64,000 nucleotides of DNA from Escherichia coli (GTDB lineage Bacteria > Pseudomonadota > Gammaproteobacteria > Enterobacterales > Enterobacteriaceae): assembly GCF_003334385.1 (NCBI RefSeq), contig NZ_QOWN01000003.1. One strand, given 5' to 3'. Every line of letters starts with the position of its first letter. Positions within the stretch are counted from its first letter, which is position 1. This document shows positions 11,072 to 22,144 of this stretch, one piece after another. Below the pieces are notes generated by a model. It was not told the origin of the DNA and did not search any database. It saw nothing but the letters and a program-made list of their open reading frames with translations. The position numbers and the translations under genes were made by a program.

Positions 11072-13006
11072 TTAAGACGATTTACGTACGCGCAAATACC
11101 ATTCGCACAGTAAACGCACCTGTTTACGGGTGTAGCCTTTTTCCATCATACGGTCGACAAAGTCGTCGTGTTTCTTCTGCTCGTCGGTTGACGTTTTGGC
11201 GTTAAACGAGATAACCGGCAACAGCTCCTCGGTATTGGAGAACATTTTCTTCTCGATGACCGTGCGCAGTTTTTCATAGCTGGTCCAGTTCGGATTGCGT
11301 CCGCTGTTATTCGCTCTGGCGCGCAGTACGAAGTTAACAATCTCGTTGCGGAAATCTTTTGGATTACTGATCCCCGCCGGTTTCTCGATTTTCTCCAGCT
11401 CGGCGTTAAGAGACTCGCGGTCAAACAGCTGCCCGGTATCCGGATCGTGATACTCCTGATCCTGAATCCAGAAATCCGCGTAGGTAACATAACGGTCGAA
11501 AATGTTTTGCCCATATTCGGAATAGGATTCAAGGTAGGCCGTCTGGATCTCTTTGCCGATAAACTCGGCATATTTCGGGATCAGATAACCTTTCAGGAAC
11601 TCCAGATAGCGTTCTGCCTGCTCTTGTGGGAACTGCTCGCGCTCAATCTGCTGTTCCAGGACGTAGAACAGATGGACCGGGTTTGCTGCCACTTCTACAT
11701 GATCGAAGTTGAACACGCGGGAGAGGATCTTAAACGCAAAACGCGTCGACAGACCGTTCATCCCTTCATCGACACCGGCGTAGTCACGATATTCCTGATA
11801 CGACTTGGCTTTGGGATCGGTGTCTTTCAGACTTTCGCCATCATAAACCCGCATCTTTGAATAAATGCTGGAGTTTTCTGGCTCTTTCAGGCGCGAAAGA
11901 ATGGAAAAACGTGACAGTGTTTCGAGCGTGCCAGGGGCGCATGGGGCGTGAGTCAATTCACTGTGATTAAGCAATTTCTCGTAGATTTTGATCTCTTCGG
12001 AAATGCGCAAGCAATACGGCACCTTCACGATGTAAACACGATCGAGGAAGGCTTCGTTGTTTTTGTTATTACGGAAAGTGACCCATTCGGACTCGTTCGA
12101 GTGTGCGAGAATAATCCCGTTGAACGGCAGGGCGGAGATACCTTCCGTCCCGTTGTAGTTACCTTCCTGAGTGGCGGTTAACAAGGGATGCAGCACTTTA
12201 ATCGGTGCTTTAAACATCTCAACGAATTCCATGATCCCCTGATTGGCGCGGCACAGCGCACCGGAATAGCCGTAGGCGTCCGGGTCATTCTGCGCGTAGT
12301 GTTCGAGTTTACGAATATCGACTTTCCCAACCAGCGCGGAGATGTCCTGGTTGTTCTCATCGCCGGGTTCCGTTTTGGCGATAGCAATTTGTTGCAGAAT
12401 TGACGGCCAGACCTTCACTACCCGGAACTTAGTGATATCGCCACCAAATTCATGCAGGCGTTTTGCCGCCCACGGCGACATGATGGTGCCGAGATAACGG
12501 CGAGGAATGCCATACTCTTTTTCCAGAATCTGCGCATCTTCCTGCGGATTGAAAAGACAGAACGGATGATCGTTGACCGGGCTACGCTCACCGTTCGCGC
12601 TCAATACATAAATCGGTACGAGCTGCATTAATGATTTCAGTCGCTCAGCAAGCGATGATTTACCCCCACCCACAGGCCCCAGCAGATACAGGATTTGTTT
12701 CTTCTCTTCCAGCCCCTGAGCCGCGTGTTTCAGATAAGAGACAATCTGTTCAATCGCGTCTTCCATGCCGTAAAACTCTTCAAACGCCGGATAACGTGCA
12801 ATGACCCGGTTAGAAAAGAGTCGAGAAAGTCTGGGTTCCTGGGCTGTATCGACCATGACAGGCTCACCGATAGCCATCAATAGCCGCTCAGCCGCGTTGG
12901 CATAAGCACTGCGATCTTGCCGACAAGTGGTAAGAAACTCCTGCAGTGTGAACTCTTCGTCCTTGGCAGCTTCATATCGCTGGCGATAGTGATCGAATAT
13001 ATTCAT
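11072..13006 (-). CDS. yeaG: PrkA-family serine protein kinase YeaG
   Basis: 644-aa ORF with Walker-A-like LLGPVGGGKSSLAERL near the N-terminus; synteny with yeaH. Confidence 0.9.
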   Translation of the reverse strand: MNIFDHYRQRYEAAKDEEFTLQEFLTTCRQDRSAYANAAERLLMAIGEPVMVDTAQEPRLSRLFSNRVIARYPAFEEFYGMEDAIEQIVSYLKHAAQGLEEKKQILYLLGPVGGGKSSLAERLKSLMQLVPIYVLSANGERSPVNDHPFCLFNPQEDAQILEKEYGIPRRYLGTIMSPWAAKRLHEFGGDITKFRVVKVWPSILQQIAIAKTEPGDENNQDISALVGKVDIRKLEHYAQNDPDAYGYSGALCRANQGIMEFVEMFKAPIKVLHPLLTATQEGNYNGTEGISALPFNGIILAHSNESEWVTFRNNKNNEAFLDRVYIVKVPYCLRISEEIKIYEKLLNHSELTHAPCAPGTLETLSRFSILSRLKEPENSSIYSKMRVYDGESLKDTDPKAKSYQEYRDYAGVDEGMNGLSTRFAFKILSRVFNFDHVEVAANPVHLFYVLEQQIEREQFPQEQAERYLEFLKGYLIPKYAEFIGKEIQTAYLESYSEYGQNIFDRYVTYADFWIQDQEYHDPDTGQLFDRESLNAELEKIEKPAGISNPKDFRNEIVNFVLRARANNSGRNPNWTSYEKLRTVIEKKMFSNTEELLPVISFNAKTSTDEQKKHDDFVDRMMEKGYTRKQVRLLCEWYLRVRKSS

Positions 13007-13125: not shown

Positions 13126-13441
13126 TTTTATCGACGATGAGAACAACGTGCCCGGTGATACACCTTCAAAATTAAGCGTAGATGGCAAATGGAAAACTTG
13201 CCTGCACGGCTTTCTTAATTTCAATGGCATATCAACAACTCATCCATAAATTTTGCATAATTAATGTAAAGACCAGGCTCGCCAGTAACGCTAAATTCAT
13301 TTGGCTGTAAGCGCGGTGTCATCCGCGTCAGGAAAATTAAACAGTTACTTTAAAAAATGAAAACGTAAAAAGGTTGGGTTTCGATGTATTGACGGGTAAA
13401 CTTTGTCGCCCGCTAAACATTTGTTTAAGGAATGATTAATT

Positions 13442-14188
13442 GTGACCAAACTCAAACTTCTGGCACTTGGAGTGCTTATCGCAACGTCTGCAGGCGTAGC
13501 GCACGCTGAAGGTAAATTTTCCCTGGGCGCAGGCGTAGGTGTCGTTGAACACCCATATAAAGATTACGATACCGATGTTTACCCAGTACCGGTAATCAAC
13601 TATGAAGGCGATAACTTCTGGTTCCGTGGCTTAGGTGGTGGTTACTACCTGTGGAATGACGCAACGGATAAACTTTCAATTACCGCTTACTGGTCGCCGC
13701 TTTACTTCAAAGCGAAAGACAGTGGCGATCACCAAATGCGTCACCTGGATGACCGTAAGAGCACCATGATGGCTGGTCTGTCTTATGCTCACTTTACCCA
13801 GTACGGTTACCTGCGTACCACCCTGGCTGGCGATACCCTGGATAACAGCAACGGCATCGTCTGGGATATGGCCTGGTTGTATCGTTACACCAACGGTGGC
13901 CTGACCGTGACTCCGGGTATTGGTGTGCAGTGGAACAGCGAAAACCAGAACGAATACTATTATGGCGTATCGCGCAAAGAGTCCGCTCGCAGCGGTCTGC
14001 GTGGCTATAACCCGAACGACAGCTGGAGCCCTTACCTGGAGCTGAGCGCCAGCTACAACTTCCTCGGCGACTGGAGTGTTTACGGTACCGCACGCTACAC
14101 CCGTCTGTCTGATGAAGTTACTGACAGCCCGATGGTGGATAAATCCTGGACTGGCCTGATTTCTACCGGGATCACCTACAAATTCTGA
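13442..14188 (+). CDS. mipA: MltA-interacting outer-membrane protein MipA
   Basis: 248-aa ORF with GTG start, signal peptide (LLALGVLIATSAGVAHA) and beta-barrel-like alternating hydrophobicity ending in ...TYKF. Confidence 0.9.
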   Translation: MTKLKLLALGVLIATSAGVAHAEGKFSLGAGVGVVEHPYKDYDTDVYPVPVINYEGDNFWFRGLGGGYYLWNDATDKLSITAYWSPLYFKAKDSGDHQMRHLDDRKSTMMAGLSYAHFTQYGYLRTTLAGDTLDNSNGIVWDMAWLYRYTNGGLTVTPGIGVQWNSENQNEYYYGVSRKESARSGLRGYNPNDSWSPYLELSASYNFLGDWSVYGTARYTRLSDEVTDSPMVDKSWTGLISTGITYKF

Positions 14189-17155: not shown

Positions 17156-17484
17156 CTATTTGTTAGTGAATAAAAGGTTGCCTGTAAAATTACAAAAACC
17201 TTACGCAGCGTCAAGCGGAATCGTGTCAATCATTGCGACAAATCAATCCTGTGCCTAAGCATTACGCGACTGACTCGCCTCACTCTTCCTTTGGGCTTGA
17301 GACCACATGGGGTCGGCGCCCCGAATTTTAAAGGGCAATTACGATAAAAATGTGATTTTCATCACGATTTAGGTGCAGCCATTTCGTCGAGATCAAGTTT
17401 AGGACAAAATTTTGCCAGTTGGTGTTAATGTTTTGTTAGAATCGGTCACGTAATGTGAGCACGATTAAAGTGAGATGTGAGCAA

Positions 17485-17898
17485 ATGGCTAATAAACCTT
17501 CGGCAGAAGAACTGAAAAAAAATTTGTCCGAGATGCAGTTTTACGTGACGCAGAATCATGGGACAGAGCCGCCATTTACGGGTCGTTTACTGCATAACAA
17601 GCGTGACGGCGTATATCACTGTTTGATCTGCGATGCCCCGCTGTTTCATTCCCAAACCAAGTATGATTCCGGCTGTGGCTGGCCCAGTTTCTACGAACCG
17701 GTAAGTGAAGAATCCATTCGTTATATCAAAGACTTGTCACATGGAATGCAGCGCATAGAAATTCGTTGCGGTAACTGTGATGCCCATCTGGGGCATGTCT
17801 TCCCCGACGGGCCGCAGCCAACGGGCGAACGTTATTGTGTTAACTCTGCCTCTTTACGCTTTACCGATGGCGAAAACGGCGAAGAAATCAACGGTTGA
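17485..17898 (+). CDS. msrB: peptide methionine sulfoxide reductase MsrB
   Basis: 137-aa product from the internal ATG ([12 protein letters not shown]...) with CxxC zinc motifs ([21 protein letters not shown]) and the SelR motif. Confidence 0.9.
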
Positions 17899-17939
17899 AA
17901 AAACGATTCAGCAACTTATTCCACAGGAGCGGAAAAATT

Positions 17940-18212
17940 ATGAATCTTGATGACATTATCAACAGCATGATGCCTGAGGTATACCAGCGTTTGTCGACCG
18001 CCGTTGAACTGGGGAAATGGCCTGATGGCGTTGCGTTGACCGAGGAACAAAAAGAGAACTGCCTGCAACTGGTGATGCTGTGGCAAGCCCGCCATAATAT
18101 CGAAGCACAGCATATGACAATTGACACAAATGGTCAGATGGTCATGAAGAGCAAACAGCAGTTAAAAGAAGATTTTGGTATCTCAGCAAAGCCTATTGCC
18201 ATGTTTAAGTAA
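17940..18212 (+). CDS. yeaC: DUF1315-family protein YeaC (90 aa)
   Basis: ORF overlapping the msrB stop; ATG at 17940 (MNLDDIINSMMPEVYQRL...) gives the expected 90 aa. Confidence 0.8.
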   Translation: MNLDDIINSMMPEVYQRLSTAVELGKWPDGVALTEEQKENCLQLVMLWQARHNIEAQHMTIDTNGQMVMKSKQQLKEDFGISAKPIAMFK

Positions 18213-18581
18213 GTGGTTCATCCCCTTTTTGCCTCGGCTATGAAGGGGATAGCCAACAATGACCCCACGACTCATCTCAATTATCTCGCCATGACCTGGC
18301 TAAGTCCCAGTCCGATCTCTTGCCGTCCCGTTCACAACTGAATGACTTCTCCTGAACTTAAGTCTCAGACCTATTTGGCCGGTAATCCCTCTCGAATTTG
18401 CTCTTTTTGCGCCCCGCCTTCCATCAACCTGTAACAGACCCAGCCATTTTCTGCGTAATTGTGATCTGAGTTGTAAAACGCAGATCATTATCTGTGCTTT
18501 ACAGATTTAATGTTGACCTCAAAAATCATGTGGGTAAGTATGATGGCCATCTAAGCAAAACTAAACACAGAGGATGACGCA

Positions 18582-19658
18582 ATGAAAGCACTGGCTCGGT
18601 TTGGCAAGGCCTTTGGCGGCTACAAGATGATTGATGTCCCACAACCCATGTGTGGCCCGGAAGATGTAGTGATTGAAATTAAAGCCGCGGCAATCTGCGG
18701 CGCAGACATGAAGCACTACAATGTCGATAGCGGTTCTGATGAGTTTAACTCTATCCGCGGCCATGAGTTCGCAGGTTGTATTGCGCAGGTTGGTGAAAAA
18801 GTCAAAGACTGGAAAGTGGGGCAACGCGTCGTATCGGATAACAGCGGTCACGTTTGCGGTGTTTGTCCGGCCTGTGAACAAGGTGATTTTCTGTGTTGTA
18901 CAGAAAAAGTAAACCTTGGTCTGGATAATAATACCTGGGGCGGTGGTTTTTCCAAATATTGTCTGGTTCCTGGTGAAATTCTCAAAATTCATCGTCATGC
19001 GTTGTGGGAAATCCCTGATGGTGTTGATTATGAGGACGCAGCCGTACTTGACCCTATCTGTAATGCCTACAAATCCATCGCGCAGCAATCGAAATTCCTT
19101 CCTGGTCAGGATGTGGTCGTCATCGGCACTGGCCCACTCGGGCTGTTCTCCGTACAAATGGCGCGAATTATGGGGGCGGTAAATATCGTCGTCGTTGGTC
19201 TGCAAGAAGATGTGGCGGTCCGCTTCCCGGTTGCAAAAGAACTGGGTGCGACGGCAGTAGTAAATGGTTCTACCGAAGATGTGGTGGCGCGCTGCCAGCA
19301 AATTTGTGGCAAAGACAATCTGGGACTGGTGATTGAATGCTCCGGTGCCAATATCGCACTGAAACAAGCCATCGAAATGCTCCGCCCGAACGGGGAAGTG
19401 GTACGCGTTGGAATGGGCTTCAAACCTCTTGATTTCTCGATTAATGACATTACCGCCTGGAACAAAAGCATCATTGGGCATATGGCCTATGACTCCACCT
19501 CATGGCGTAACGCTATCAGGCTATTAGCCAGCGGCGCTATCAAAGTCAAACCGATGATCACGCATCGTATCGGCCTGTCGCAATGGCGCGAAGGGTTTGA
19601 TGCGATGGTCGATAAAACCGCAATCAAAGTGATCATGACTTACGACTTTGATGAATAA
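18582..19658 (+). CDS. ydjL: Zn-dependent medium-chain alcohol/polyol dehydrogenase YdjL
   Basis: 358-aa ORF with MDR-family zinc and NAD motifs (GHEFAGCIAQVG, VVVIGTGPLG); first gene of the ydjLKJIHG cluster. Confidence 0.9.
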   Translation: MKALARFGKAFGGYKMIDVPQPMCGPEDVVIEIKAAAICGADMKHYNVDSGSDEFNSIRGHEFAGCIAQVGEKVKDWKVGQRVVSDNSGHVCGVCPACEQGDFLCCTEKVNLGLDNNTWGGGFSKYCLVPGEILKIHRHALWEIPDGVDYEDAAVLDPICNAYKSIAQQSKFLPGQDVVVIGTGPLGLFSVQMARIMGAVNIVVVGLQEDVAVRFPVAKELGATAVVNGSTEDVVARCQQICGKDNLGLVIECSGANIALKQAIEMLRPNGEVVRVGMGFKPLDFSINDITAWNKSIIGHMAYDSTSWRNAIRLLASGAIKVKPMITHRIGLSQWREGFDAMVDKTAIKVIMTYDFDE

Positions 19659-19684
19659 CCACTCTCCTGAAGGAACGTTATCGC

Positions 19685-21064
19685 ATGGAACAGATAACAA
19701 AACCGCATTGTGGTGCACGGCTGGATCGCTTACCGGATTGCCGCTGGCATTCATCAATGTTTGCCATCGTCGCGTTTGGCTTGCTTGTCTGCTGGAGTAA
19801 TGCCGTTGGTGGCTTGATCCTCGCGCAGCTGAAAGCGTTGGGCTGGACAGATAATTCCACCACAGCCACATTCTCAGCAATCACGACCGCCGGAATGTTT
19901 CTCGGTGCGCTGGTGGGCGGCATCATTGGCGACAAAACCGGTCGCAGAAATGCGTTCATCCTCTATGAGGCCATTCATATTGCCTCGATGGTTGTCGGTG
20001 CTTTCTCACCGAATATGGATTTCCTTATTGCCTGCCGTTTTGTGATGGGAGTTGGGCTGGGAGCTTTACTGGTTACGCTGTTTGCTGGTTTCACCGAATA
20101 TATGCCCGGTAGAAATCGTGGAACGTGGTCAAGTCGGGTTTCCTTTATTGGCAACTGGTCATATCCGCTCTGTTCATTGATAGCGATGGGACTCACGCCG
20201 CTGATTAGTGCAGAGTGGAACTGGCGGGTACAACTGCTTATCCCTGCAATATTGTCGCTTATCGCTACGGCGCTGGCCTGGCGCTACTTTCCTGAATCCC
20301 CGCGCTGGCTGGAATCGCGCGGACGGTATCAGGAAGCCGAGAAAGTCATGCGGAGTATAGAAGAAGGCGTCATACGCCAGACGGGTAAACCTTTGCCGCC
20401 TGTGGTTATTGCTGATGACGGTAAAGCGCCACAAGCGGTGCCGTATTCAGCCTTACTGACAGGAGTATTACTGAAACGCGTGATATTAGGCTCTTGTGTG
20501 CTGATTGCCATGAACGTTGTGCAGTACACACTAATTAACTGGTTGCCAACAATATTCATGACCCTGGGGATTAATTTAAAAGACTCGATTGTTTTAAATA
20601 CCATGAGTATGTTTGGCGCGCCATTTGGTATTTTTATTGCCATGCTGGTGATGGATAAAATTCCGCGTAAAACAATGGGTGTGGGGCTATTAATCCTGAT
20701 TGCGGTGCTCGGATATATCTATTCACTGCAAACCAGTATGTTGCTCATAACGTTGATTGGTTTCTTCCTGATTACTTTCGTCTATATGTACGTTTGCTAT
20801 GCCTCGGCAGTGTATGTCCCTGAAATCTGGCCGACAGAGGCCAAACTCCGTGGCTCCGGTCTGGCGAATGCGGTAGGGCGAATCAGTGGTATTGCCGCAC
20901 CTTATGCCGTTGCAGTGCTGCTCAGTAGTTATGGCGTTACGGGAGTCTTTATTCTTCTGGGGGCGGTTTCAATTATTGTCGCAATTGCTATCGCCACCAT
21001 TGGAATCGAAACCAAAGGTGTCTCCGTTGAAAGTTTAAGTATTGATGCAGTAGCCAATAAATAA
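19685..21064 (+). CDS. ydjK: MFS transporter YdjK
   Basis: 459-aa polytopic ORF; paralogous to the downstream ydjE. Confidence 0.9.
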   Translation: MEQITKPHCGARLDRLPDCRWHSSMFAIVAFGLLVCWSNAVGGLILAQLKALGWTDNSTTATFSAITTAGMFLGALVGGIIGDKTGRRNAFILYEAIHIASMVVGAFSPNMDFLIACRFVMGVGLGALLVTLFAGFTEYMPGRNRGTWSSRVSFIGNWSYPLCSLIAMGLTPLISAEWNWRVQLLIPAILSLIATALAWRYFPESPRWLESRGRYQEAEKVMRSIEEGVIRQTGKPLPPVVIADDGKAPQAVPYSALLTGVLLKRVILGSCVLIAMNVVQYTLINWLPTIFMTLGINLKDSIVLNTMSMFGAPFGIFIAMLVMDKIPRKTMGVGLLILIAVLGYIYSLQTSMLLITLIGFFLITFVYMYVCYASAVYVPEIWPTEAKLRGSGLANAVGRISGIAAPYAVAVLLSSYGVTGVFILLGAVSIIVAIAIATIGIETKGVSVESLSIDAVANK

Positions 21065-21080
21065 TACGGGTGGATTCAAA

Positions 21081-22124
21081 ATGAAAAATTCAAAAGCAAT
21101 ATTGCAGGTGCCGGGCACAATGAAAATTATTTCAGCAGAAATACCAGTGCCTAAAGAAGATGAAGTTTTGATTAAAGTAGAATATGTCGGTATTTGTGGT
21201 TCAGATGTACATGGTTTTGAATCAGGCCCGTTTATTCCGCCTAAAGACCCAAATCAAGAAATTGGCCTGGGTCATGAATGCGCCGGGACGGTTGTGGCTG
21301 TGGGAAGCCGCGTGCGCAAATTTAAACCGGGGGATCGGGTAAATATCGAACCTGGCGTTCCTTGCGGTCACTGTCGTTACTGTCTGGAAGGCAAATATAA
21401 CATCTGCCCGGACGTTGATTTTATGGCGACACAACCCAACTACCGCGGCGCATTAACGCACTATCTGTGTCATCCGGAGAGCTTTACTTACAAACTGCCC
21501 GACAATATGGACACGATGGAAGGGGCGCTGGTGGAGCCTGCCGCAGTCGGGATGCATGCCGCGATGCTGGCAGATGTTAAACCGGGTAAGAAGATAATTA
21601 TTCTGGGAGCAGGTTGTATTGGTTTGATGACGTTGCAAGCGTGCAAATGCCTGGGAGCAACGGAAATTGCCGTCGTTGATGTGCTGGAAAAACGTCTGGC
21701 AATGGCGGAACAGCTTGGTGCGACAGTGGTTATTAACGGCGCAAAAGAAGACACTATTGCACGCTGTCAGCAATTTACCGAAGACATGGGCGCAGATATT
21801 GTTTTCGAAACAGCGGGTTCTGCGGTCACCGTTAAACAGGCACCTTATCTGGTAATGCGCGGCGGTAAAATTATGATTGTTGGTACTGTACCCGGCGATT
21901 CGGCAATCAATTTCCTCAAAATCAATCGCGAAGTCACTATCCAGACGGTATTCCGCTATGCCAATCGTTATCCGGTCACGATTGAAGCTATTTCTTCAGG
22001 GCGATTCGATGTGAAATCGATGGTGACGCATATTTACGATTATCGGGATGTACAACAGGCATTTGAAGAGTCAGTTAACAACAAACGCGACATTATTAAA
22101 GGCGTTATTAAAATTAGCGATTAA
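21081..22124 (+). CDS. ydjJ: Zn-dependent alcohol/polyol dehydrogenase YdjJ
   Basis: 347-aa ORF with MDR motifs (GHECAGTVVAVG, IIILGAGCIG). Confidence 0.9.
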   Translation: MKNSKAILQVPGTMKIISAEIPVPKEDEVLIKVEYVGICGSDVHGFESGPFIPPKDPNQEIGLGHECAGTVVAVGSRVRKFKPGDRVNIEPGVPCGHCRYCLEGKYNICPDVDFMATQPNYRGALTHYLCHPESFTYKLPDNMDTMEGALVEPAAVGMHAAMLADVKPGKKIIILGAGCIGLMTLQACKCLGATEIAVVDVLEKRLAMAEQLGATVVINGAKEDTIARCQQFTEDMGADIVFETAGSAVTVKQAPYLVMRGGKIMIVGTVPGDSAINFLKINREVTIQTVFRYANRYPVTIEAISSGRFDVKSMVTHIYDYRDVQQAFEESVNNKRDIIKGVIKISD

Positions 22125-22144
22125 TTAATACGGGAGAACAGAAC

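Follow-up and report, generated by a model that had tools for sequence, protein, structure and literature searches.

A putative CRP-activated and YdjF-gated control region upstream of the ydjLKJIHG operon of Escherichia coli

The ydj genes of this E. coli strain lie on the plus strand of the analysed stretch of 64,000 nucleotides (hereafter the window) in the order ydjL (ATG at 18582), ydjK, ydjJ, ydjI, ydjH, ydjG and ydjF. The spacer between the stop codon of yeaC (18212) and ydjL measures 369 bp and holds the control region of the ydjLKJIHG sugar-acid operon. Direct reading and alignment place a Shine-Dalgarno sequence, GAGGA, at 18570–18574, so that the ribosome-binding and start signals of ydjL together span 18570–18584 on the plus strand. 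Comparison with K-12 MG1655 revealed differences only at 18337 and at 18497, the latter being the centre of the operator designated O2 below, with 18440–18496 identical; because K-12 is otherwise identical across the elements described here, published K-12 experiments apply to the window sequence. An Rfam scan of 17800–18900 at a permissive threshold returned no RNA family. Directly 3′ of the yeaC stop codon, a hairpin without a U-tract is predicted at 18214–18255 (−22.2 kcal/mol, z = −3.2), and its stem (ATCCCCTT / AAGGGGAT) is retained in other Escherichia species with a differing loop.

The ydj cluster (18213–27300 of the window) is accessory within the species. Of 5426 complete E. coli genomes, only 4331 match 80% or more of a query spanning 18150–18650, and in strain XJ5.2 pncA follows directly after yeaC. 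In addition, the reading frame of the transporter gene ydjE (25935–27293), downstream of ydjF, is interrupted in this strain by a stop at codon 227 (26613–26615), so that ydjE looks like a pseudogene here.

Outside E. coli, a YdjL scan of a genome collection recovered 24 Enterobacterales loci, from Escherichia, Citrobacter, Klebsiella, Raoultella, Yokenella, Intestinirhabdus, Budvicia, Symbiopectobacterium, Enterobacillus, Serratia and one MAG, together with approximately 17 Firmicute, Actinobacterial and Negativicute loci (76–85% protein identity). YdjL proteins at this level of identity were encoded in Lachnospiraceae, Eubacteriaceae, Atopobiaceae, Anaerococcus, Megamonas and Enterococcus (loci L022–L045, L059 and L063) in the same gene order; in many of the non-enterobacterial clusters, ydjL and ydjK are separated by an additional Ribul_P_3_epim gene. 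The combination of YdjL identity and shared gene order across phyla points to horizontal transfer.

The promoter region was aligned across 25 Enterobacterales genomes representing more than 10 genera. Similarity sets in abruptly at approximately 18457; further upstream the DNA is unrelated between genera and the neighbouring genes are different. Downstream of this boundary, TGTGA (18460–18464), C18466, A18482, A18484, T18498, A18501, TT (18506–18507), TTGA (18513–18516) and A18540 are invariant in all 25 genomes. The distance from TGTGA to TTGAC is 53 bp in 24 of the 25, and there are essentially no indels between TGTGA and the −35 hexamer. An earlier note on this DNA had named a CRP-like site, a 7-bp inverted repeat and a −35-like TTGACC within this stretch, and direct reading located all of these elements where that note had placed them.

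A sigma-70 promoter of ydjL is predicted at 18513–18541 on the plus strand, comprising the −35 hexamer TTGACC (18513–18518), a 17-bp spacer and the −10 hexamer AAGTAT (18536–18541), with transcription predicted to start at approximately 18548–18549. Across the orthologues the −35 is conserved as TTGAC(C/T) and the −10 as AA(G/T/C)TAT (AAGTAT / AATTAT), and the same 17-bp architecture was found in Serratia, Enterobacillus, Symbiopectobacterium, Klebsiella and Citrobacter. The proposal that TTGACC serves as a −35 thus gains support from its conservation together with that of a −10 located 17 bp downstream. A simple promoter and terminator scan reported two 9/12 promoter-like matches (TTTACA-17-AAAAAT on the plus strand and another on the minus strand) and no terminator; the conserved ydjL promoter was missed by this scanner because it matches at 8 of 12 positions.

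The sole transcription start for ydjL in the literature (Adams et al., listed as 'ydjL 5′ UTR' under non-inducing conditions) is G18105, which lies inside yeaC, upstream of the elements described here, with a −10-like CATAAT at 18093–18098, 7 nt upstream of it. Adams et al. also report a Rho-dependent 3′ end at K-12 position 1861188, 144 nt into ydjL (approximately 18726 of the window). This upstream start and Rho-dependent 3′ end imply that the transcripts reaching ydjL in laboratory media come from upstream and are terminated, which is consistent with a silent ydjL promoter. As to the start site that the earlier note would have had mapped, the published start under non-inducing conditions is compatible with the proposed elements. 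In the study of Naydich et al. (2019), a ydjL promoter fragment that was off in vitro switched on in the course of mouse gut passage.

The last gene of the conserved order, ydjF (25060–25818), encodes a protein similar to the DeoR/GlpR family, with its best NCBIfam similarity to the GlpR and AgaR models, below every equivalog cut-off. Orthologues of YdjF were found by searching 10-kb loci, flanks of ±3 kb having been too short (tblastn empty). Proteins with HTH_DeoR and DeoRC domains occupy the ydjF position in the Klebsiella, Citrobacter, Budvicia, Enterobacillus, Atopobiaceae and Eubacteriaceae clusters, and the distant clusters keep the order ydjL...ydjG-ydjF and end with a 252-aa HTH_DeoR/DeoRC protein. 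Across three phyla, the helix-turn-helix segment VTEETIRRDLEKLE is identical between E. coli YdjF and the distant DeoR proteins. A full-text literature search for YdjF found no binding study.

To derive a matrix for the presumed operator units, unbiased expectation-maximisation was applied to 12 Firmicute and Actinobacterial ydjL promoters, and the motif ATCT[T/G][T/C]GAAA.A.ACA emerged de novo. These non-enterobacterial promoters contain one to three ATCT(G/T)(T/C)GAAACAGA-like units just upstream of the −35, spaced 20–21 bp apart, as in loci L023, L026 and L036. When the matrix was run over the 64-kb window, the best matches were upstream of ydjF (20.1 bits), at O2 in the ydjL promoter (17.6 bits), at 12202–12217, away from the cluster (14.4 bits), and at 18889–18905 inside ydjL (14.0 bits), the mean maximum score of shuffled windows being 13.9 bits. 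The related pattern TCTGTG-N3-CACAGA with up to three mismatches was uninformative overall, with 21 matches in the window versus 21.5 expected; the useful matches are those with at most one mismatch (18491 and 18890) and the one upstream of ydjF.

O2, the main YdjF-type operator of the ydjL promoter, is the palindrome ATCTGTGcttTACAGAT (also read as ATCTGTgctttACAGAT) at 18490–18506, which has one mismatch to TCTGTG-N3-CACAGA. Read on its two strands, it provides the second and third best unit-matrix matches in 64 kb (17.6 and 15.4 bits), and it scores 7.8–22 bits in all 25 Enterobacterales genomes. Its start lies 23 bp upstream of the −35; the same 23 bp separate unit and −35 at the ydjF promoter of E. 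coli and in five other Enterobacterales, with 24 bp in five Firmicutes. The transfer of the motif from other phyla, the shared regulator helix and the fixed distance to the −35 together assign O2 to YdjF, and on these sequence grounds 18490–18506 is, with high confidence, taken as a YdjF operator. In O157:H7 strain EDL933, alignment to 18481–18506 showed that the second GATC has been lost (CAGATTA) and that the right half of O2 has changed from ACAGAT to ACATGT; given this changed half, YdjF control may be altered in O157:H7.

A weaker unit, O1 (AGTTGTAAAACGCAGA here, AGTTGTGAAATGCAGA in most genera), lies on the plus strand at 18469–18484, 21 bp upstream of O2. It scores 2.2 bits in E. coli and up to 10.6–13.0 bits in Citrobacter, Klebsiella and Serratia; TTG, AA and A18482/A18484 are its conserved parts. 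O1 overlaps the right half of the CRP-like site and contains the right arm of the inverted repeat, and 18469–18484 is assigned as a YdjF operator unit with moderate confidence. A possible third unit, O3 (ATTTTTGAGGTCAACA, minus strand, 18511–18526, 10.2 bits), lies 21 bp from O2 and overlaps the −35 and the promoter spacer, where positions 18519, 18522–18523 and 18526 are at least 90% conserved. A comparable match of 10.1 bits occupies the same relative position in the ydjF promoter (24991–25006). O3 is speculative and may be an artefact, because the training set included some sequences overlapping the −35. The centres of O1 (18476.5), O2 (18497.5) and the possible O3 (18518.5) are 21 bp apart, and a repeat finder also linked 18472–18485 to 18490–18503 as a 14-nt repeat. 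A distal fourth unit considered at 18448–18463 (TTCTGCGTAATTGTGA) was rejected, as it scored negatively and is conserved within Escherichia only.

The promoter region of ydjF itself (24970–25021, plus strand) combines a unit, ATCTGTGATTCAAACAG (24970–24986), with a −35 TTGAAA (24993–24998), a 17-bp spacer and a −10 GATAAT (25016–25021). No other position in the 64-kb window matches the unit matrix as well as this unit, which starts 23 bp upstream of the −35 and has conserved counterparts in Citrobacter, Klebsiella, Budvicia and Enterobacillus. Shimada et al. (2014; PMC3946193) list TTGAAA-17-GATAAT as the RpoD constitutive promoter of ydjF, and the ydjL promoter is not on their list. The ydjG-ydjF spacer (24947–24977) also contains three copies of TGTGA, at 24951, 24960 and 24973; other genera conserve only the third, which is part of the operator unit. 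These three copies may explain why a Crp genomic SELEX study (PMC3105977) lists ydjF among its targets; ydjL is absent from that list, and its absence counts against a CRP site at ydjL.

A further candidate operator lies within the ydjL coding sequence at 18889–18905 (codons 103–108), 399 bp from the centre of O2. The palindrome TTCTGTGTTGTACAGAA departs from the TCTGTG-N3-CACAGA pattern at one position, reaches 14.0 and 11.6 bits under the unit matrix and encodes F-L-C-C-T-E. The 7-codon window that includes it (18885–18905) shows the lowest synonymous divergence of the 343 ydjL windows among 25 Enterobacterales (0.071 versus a mean of 0.442), and its rare Thr codon, ACA, is never exchanged among the 25 genomes. 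These features would fit an auxiliary operator for YdjF, analogous to those within glpD.

Upstream of the YdjF-type units, the CRP-like 22-mer AATTGTGATCTGAGTTGTAAAA occupies 18457–18478, with its core 16-mer at 18460–18475 and its centre at 18467.5. The left half, TGTGA (18460–18464), matches at all five positions and is followed by the spacer tctgag (18465–18470) and the right half TTGTA (18471–18475), which matches at two of five positions in E. coli and at one of five in most genera. Relative to the predicted start, the centre falls at −80.5 (start at 18548) or −81.5 (start at 18549), close to the classical position of −82.5. A 22-bp CRP weight matrix was built from 19 classic sites (leave-one-out range 4.8–17.1 bits). 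With this matrix 18457–18478 scored 10.6 bits, the best value in the spacer (next 6.25), rank 7 in the 64-kb window and within the range of the known sites, while the aligned position scored 5.2–12.0 bits in all 25 Enterobacterales genomes. Matches of at least 10.6 bits numbered 7 in the window versus 4.15 ± 1.6 per shuffled 64 kb, or approximately 0.024 per spacer, and 16-mers with one perfect CRP half and at least two of five matches in the other numbered 38, or 0.22 per 370 bp. As these statistics are near chance, the motif sequence alone is weak evidence for a site; TGTGA and the −35 are taken to be more than chance because they are conserved across genera.

The two strongest CRP-matrix matches in the window lie elsewhere, at 17348–17369 in the gapA-msrB spacer (18.0 bits) and at 13438–13459 (17.5 bits), the latter overlapping the start codon of mipA; the mipA-yeaG pair is a Crp SELEX target (PMC3105977). 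In Klebsiella and Citrobacter (loci L068 and L071; 7979–9703), yeaC is separated from ydjL by an HNH gene and by a divergent gene of the GH18 (chitinase-like) type, and Citrobacter and Klebsiella have a better CRP-like site, AAATGCGAAGGGGTTCACG (TGCGA-N6-TCACG), approximately 76 bp further upstream and approximately 190 bp before the ydjL ATG. This site is absent from E. coli and stands in front of the divergent GH18 gene, which it therefore probably serves. Likeness of the elements to CytR, GalR/LacI-type, Cra and FNR sites was judged by eye, as an inference only, and gave no convincing match.

Experimental evidence for Crp acting at this promoter comes from K-12. In Li et al. (2021; PMC8085971), ydjLKJIHG is a newly validated Crp-activated operon with lower expression in the transcriptome of a crp deletion strain, and Crp-cAMP retarded a ydjL promoter fragment in a mobility shift assay at 300–600 nM Crp, a result that refers to the fragment as a whole; a Crp site was also predicted in silico for the ydjL promoter. 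The catabolite control suggested by the earlier note is supported by this published crp dependence and Crp-cAMP shift, by the CRP-like site being the sole reasonable match in the spacer and by the invariance of TGTGA in 25 of 25 genomes. The TGTGA element is probably a CRP site.

Taken together, 18457–18541 seems likely, by a modest measure, to form a CRP-activated, YdjF-gated control region of ydjLKJIHG built in three layers, the layout of which is carried by the sequence, its conservation, the transfer of the motif across phyla and the published Crp dependence and binding. The first layer would be the sigma-70 promoter, in which TTGACC is a good −35, AAGTAT a weak −10 and 17 bp separate the two. 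The second would be an array of YdjF units in steps of 21 bp, or two helical turns, with O2 near −50, O1 near −71, possibly a third unit over the −35, and further units inside ydjL (approximately +350) and before ydjF. The third would be the CRP site near −80.5 to −81.5, with a consensus left half and a non-consensus right half overlapping O1. Without inducer, YdjF oligomers would fill the array, possibly looping to the site within ydjL, so that RNA polymerase and its alpha C-terminal domain would be blocked and CRP hindered. An intermediate of the ydj pathway would be expected to release YdjF, after which CRP-cAMP could activate the weak promoter from upstream in a class I-type manner. In this scheme we infer the exact CRP site, the start site, the binding of YdjF to the units and repression by YdjF.

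The sign of YdjF action could be the reverse. FucR is a DeoR-family activator, and YdjF may likewise activate from O2 at approximately −50 by recruiting RNA polymerase, in which case the gate would consist of activator plus inducer and CRP could co-activate. The location of the operator always 23–24 bp upstream of the −35, across phyla, is typical of activators, and the fixed position of O2 near −50 accordingly counts against the repressor model. The weak −10 would also suit an activator; however, the −35 is already near consensus, and a multi-unit array, a possible unit over the −35 and a unit in ydjL fit repression by oligomerisation and looping, as with GlpR and DeoR. Most characterised members of the DeoR/GlpR family are repressors, although YdjF does resemble the model of the L-fucose operon activator (1e-40). 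The presence of the ydjF promoter, and not the ydjL promoter, on the RpoD constitutive promoter list (PMC3946193) can be read both ways: it would fit activation of ydjL by YdjF, but it also shows that the ydjF promoter, with the same operator, binds RNA polymerase alone. On this evidence, activation by YdjF is considered fairly unlikely.

The assignment of the outermost element to CRP can be questioned in a similar way. TGTGATC could belong to the distal end of the YdjF array or could be bound by another factor of enterobacteria, with the crp effect being indirect or reflecting weak, non-specific binding. YdjF-type units contain T(C/T)TGTGA and so mimic CRP half-sites: units from bacteria without CRP reach 10.5 bits with the CRP matrix (L036, an Atopobiaceae genome), L037 has ATTTGTGAAACAG, and the CRP and YdjF motifs therefore resemble each other. 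The non-consensus right half, the three TGTGA copies in the ydjF spacer and the high Crp concentration in the mobility shift point the same way. However, in all 25 genomes the TGTGA region receives a negative score from the unit matrix, and the step between TGTGA and O1 is 12 bp instead of 21 bp. Enterobacillus has lost O1 but keeps TGTGA, and the ydjL promoters of the CRP-less Firmicutes and Actinobacteria show nothing comparable at that position. Furthermore, Crp-cAMP shifts the fragment, which has no better site. A non-CRP identity for TGTGATC is thus judged unlikely.

The earlier note had considered repressor-gated expression consistent with its elements, among them the 7-bp inverted repeat TGATCTG-N12-CAGATCA (18462–18468 and 18481–18487; each arm includes one GATC, at 18463–18466 and 18483–18486); on one reading, this repeat would itself be the operator of a dimeric repressor. 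TTGACC begins 26 nt past the end of the right arm. Allowing one mismatch lengthens the repeat to 11 nt (18462–18472 / 18477–18487), a form expected by chance 0.053 times per spacer (perfect 7-bp inverted repeats with gaps of up to 20 are expected 0.33 times), and ATCTG, present in both arms, is the outer part of the O2 half-sites. Yet the arms have been disrupted separately from one another in C. youngae, in Citrobacter FP75, 18056 and wls619, and in Yokenella, Budvicia, Serratia and Enterobacillus, as well as within E. coli in EDL933 (CAGATTA) and JNE12-007 (TGATCTC), with no compensating changes in the orthologues, and the 12-bp spacing differs from the 3–7 bp of the conserved palindrome. 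It is therefore quite improbable that the inverted repeat acts as an operator. Gating by a repressor is itself plausible, given the operator-like elements nearby, but the wrong element had been chosen, the conserved palindrome being 18490–18506. That the elements are functionless chance matches is highly improbable: the motif statistics stand at chance level, but this reading is already contradicted by the invariance of TGTGA and the −35 in 25 genomes with unrelated upstream DNA, and by the published Crp binding and crp dependence (PMC8085971).

The distribution of the elements also allows a history to be proposed, to which we give somewhat less than an even chance. The cis module, comprising YdjF units, the 23–24 bp distance to a promoter with a 17-bp spacer and ydjF autoregulation, may have moved horizontally with the ydj cluster between Firmicutes/Actinobacteria and Enterobacterales. 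The latter would then have added the CRP half-site upstream and an operator inside ydjL kept by synonymous-codon selection, implying looping repression over approximately 400 bp.

The proposed arrangement resembles several known systems. In the glp regulon (glpD, glpFK and glpTQ), the DeoR-family repressor GlpR binds tandem operators of approximately 20–21 bp beside or overlapping a CRP site, and auxiliary operators within glpD act at a distance. The ydjL promoter likewise has a DeoR/GlpR-family regulator gene, tandem 21-bp units, an overlapping CRP-like site and an intragenic candidate unit. In contrast to glp, the ydj unit (ATCTGTG-N3-CACAGAT type) bears no relation to the half-site of GlpR, YdjF falls below the equivalog cut-offs and the ydj arrangement is known here from sequence. 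In the gutABD (srlAEBD) operon, the sites of CAP and of the DeoR-family regulator GutR/SrlR reportedly overlap each other and a Dam GATC. Similarly, the CRP half-site and the O1 arm of ydjL each hold a GATC, whereas the gut CRP site is next to the −35 (approximately −41 to −44) and that of ydjL is near −81. The two Dam sites at ydjL (18463–18466 and 18483–18486) are separated by 20 bp and fall within the presumed binding sites of CRP and YdjF; 24 of the 25 genomes retain the first. By analogy with gut, the two are candidates for protein-protected, under-methylated GATCs.

Class I CRP-dependent promoters place CRP at −61.5 (lac) or, in a synthetic series, at −71.5, −82.5 and −92.5. The ydjL promoter shares with them a single upstream CRP-like site, a recognisable −35 and a fixed distance between the two in 24 of 25 orthologues, but departs from the class I optimum in that its predicted centre is off by 1–2 bp, its right half is non-consensus and operator units lie in between. 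More generally, the pairing of CRP with a local DeoR-family regulator, phased units, autoregulation and perhaps an intragenic operator is a standard E. coli design found at glp, gut, aga, ula and deo, so that the layout of ydjL confirms a known design and reveals none that is new. Li et al. (2021; PMC8085971) studied the same operon and fragment, and the available part of that paper does not describe YdjF operators, promoter hexamers or conservation. The Crp dependence is thus already published, and the YdjF operator, the hexamers of the ydjL promoter and the intragenic site appear to be undescribed, given that the literature search for YdjF yielded no binding study.

ydjLKJIHG is among the few carbohydrate clusters of E. 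coli K-12 for which substrate and regulation are unclear, and it is silent in culture and on in the mouse gut. The operator motif, the predicted promoter and the candidate CRP site provide concrete targets for experiments, and release of YdjF offers a route to the inducer. As the ydjL promoter has already been used as the trigger of a gut biosensor, a map of its parts could help to tune that trigger.
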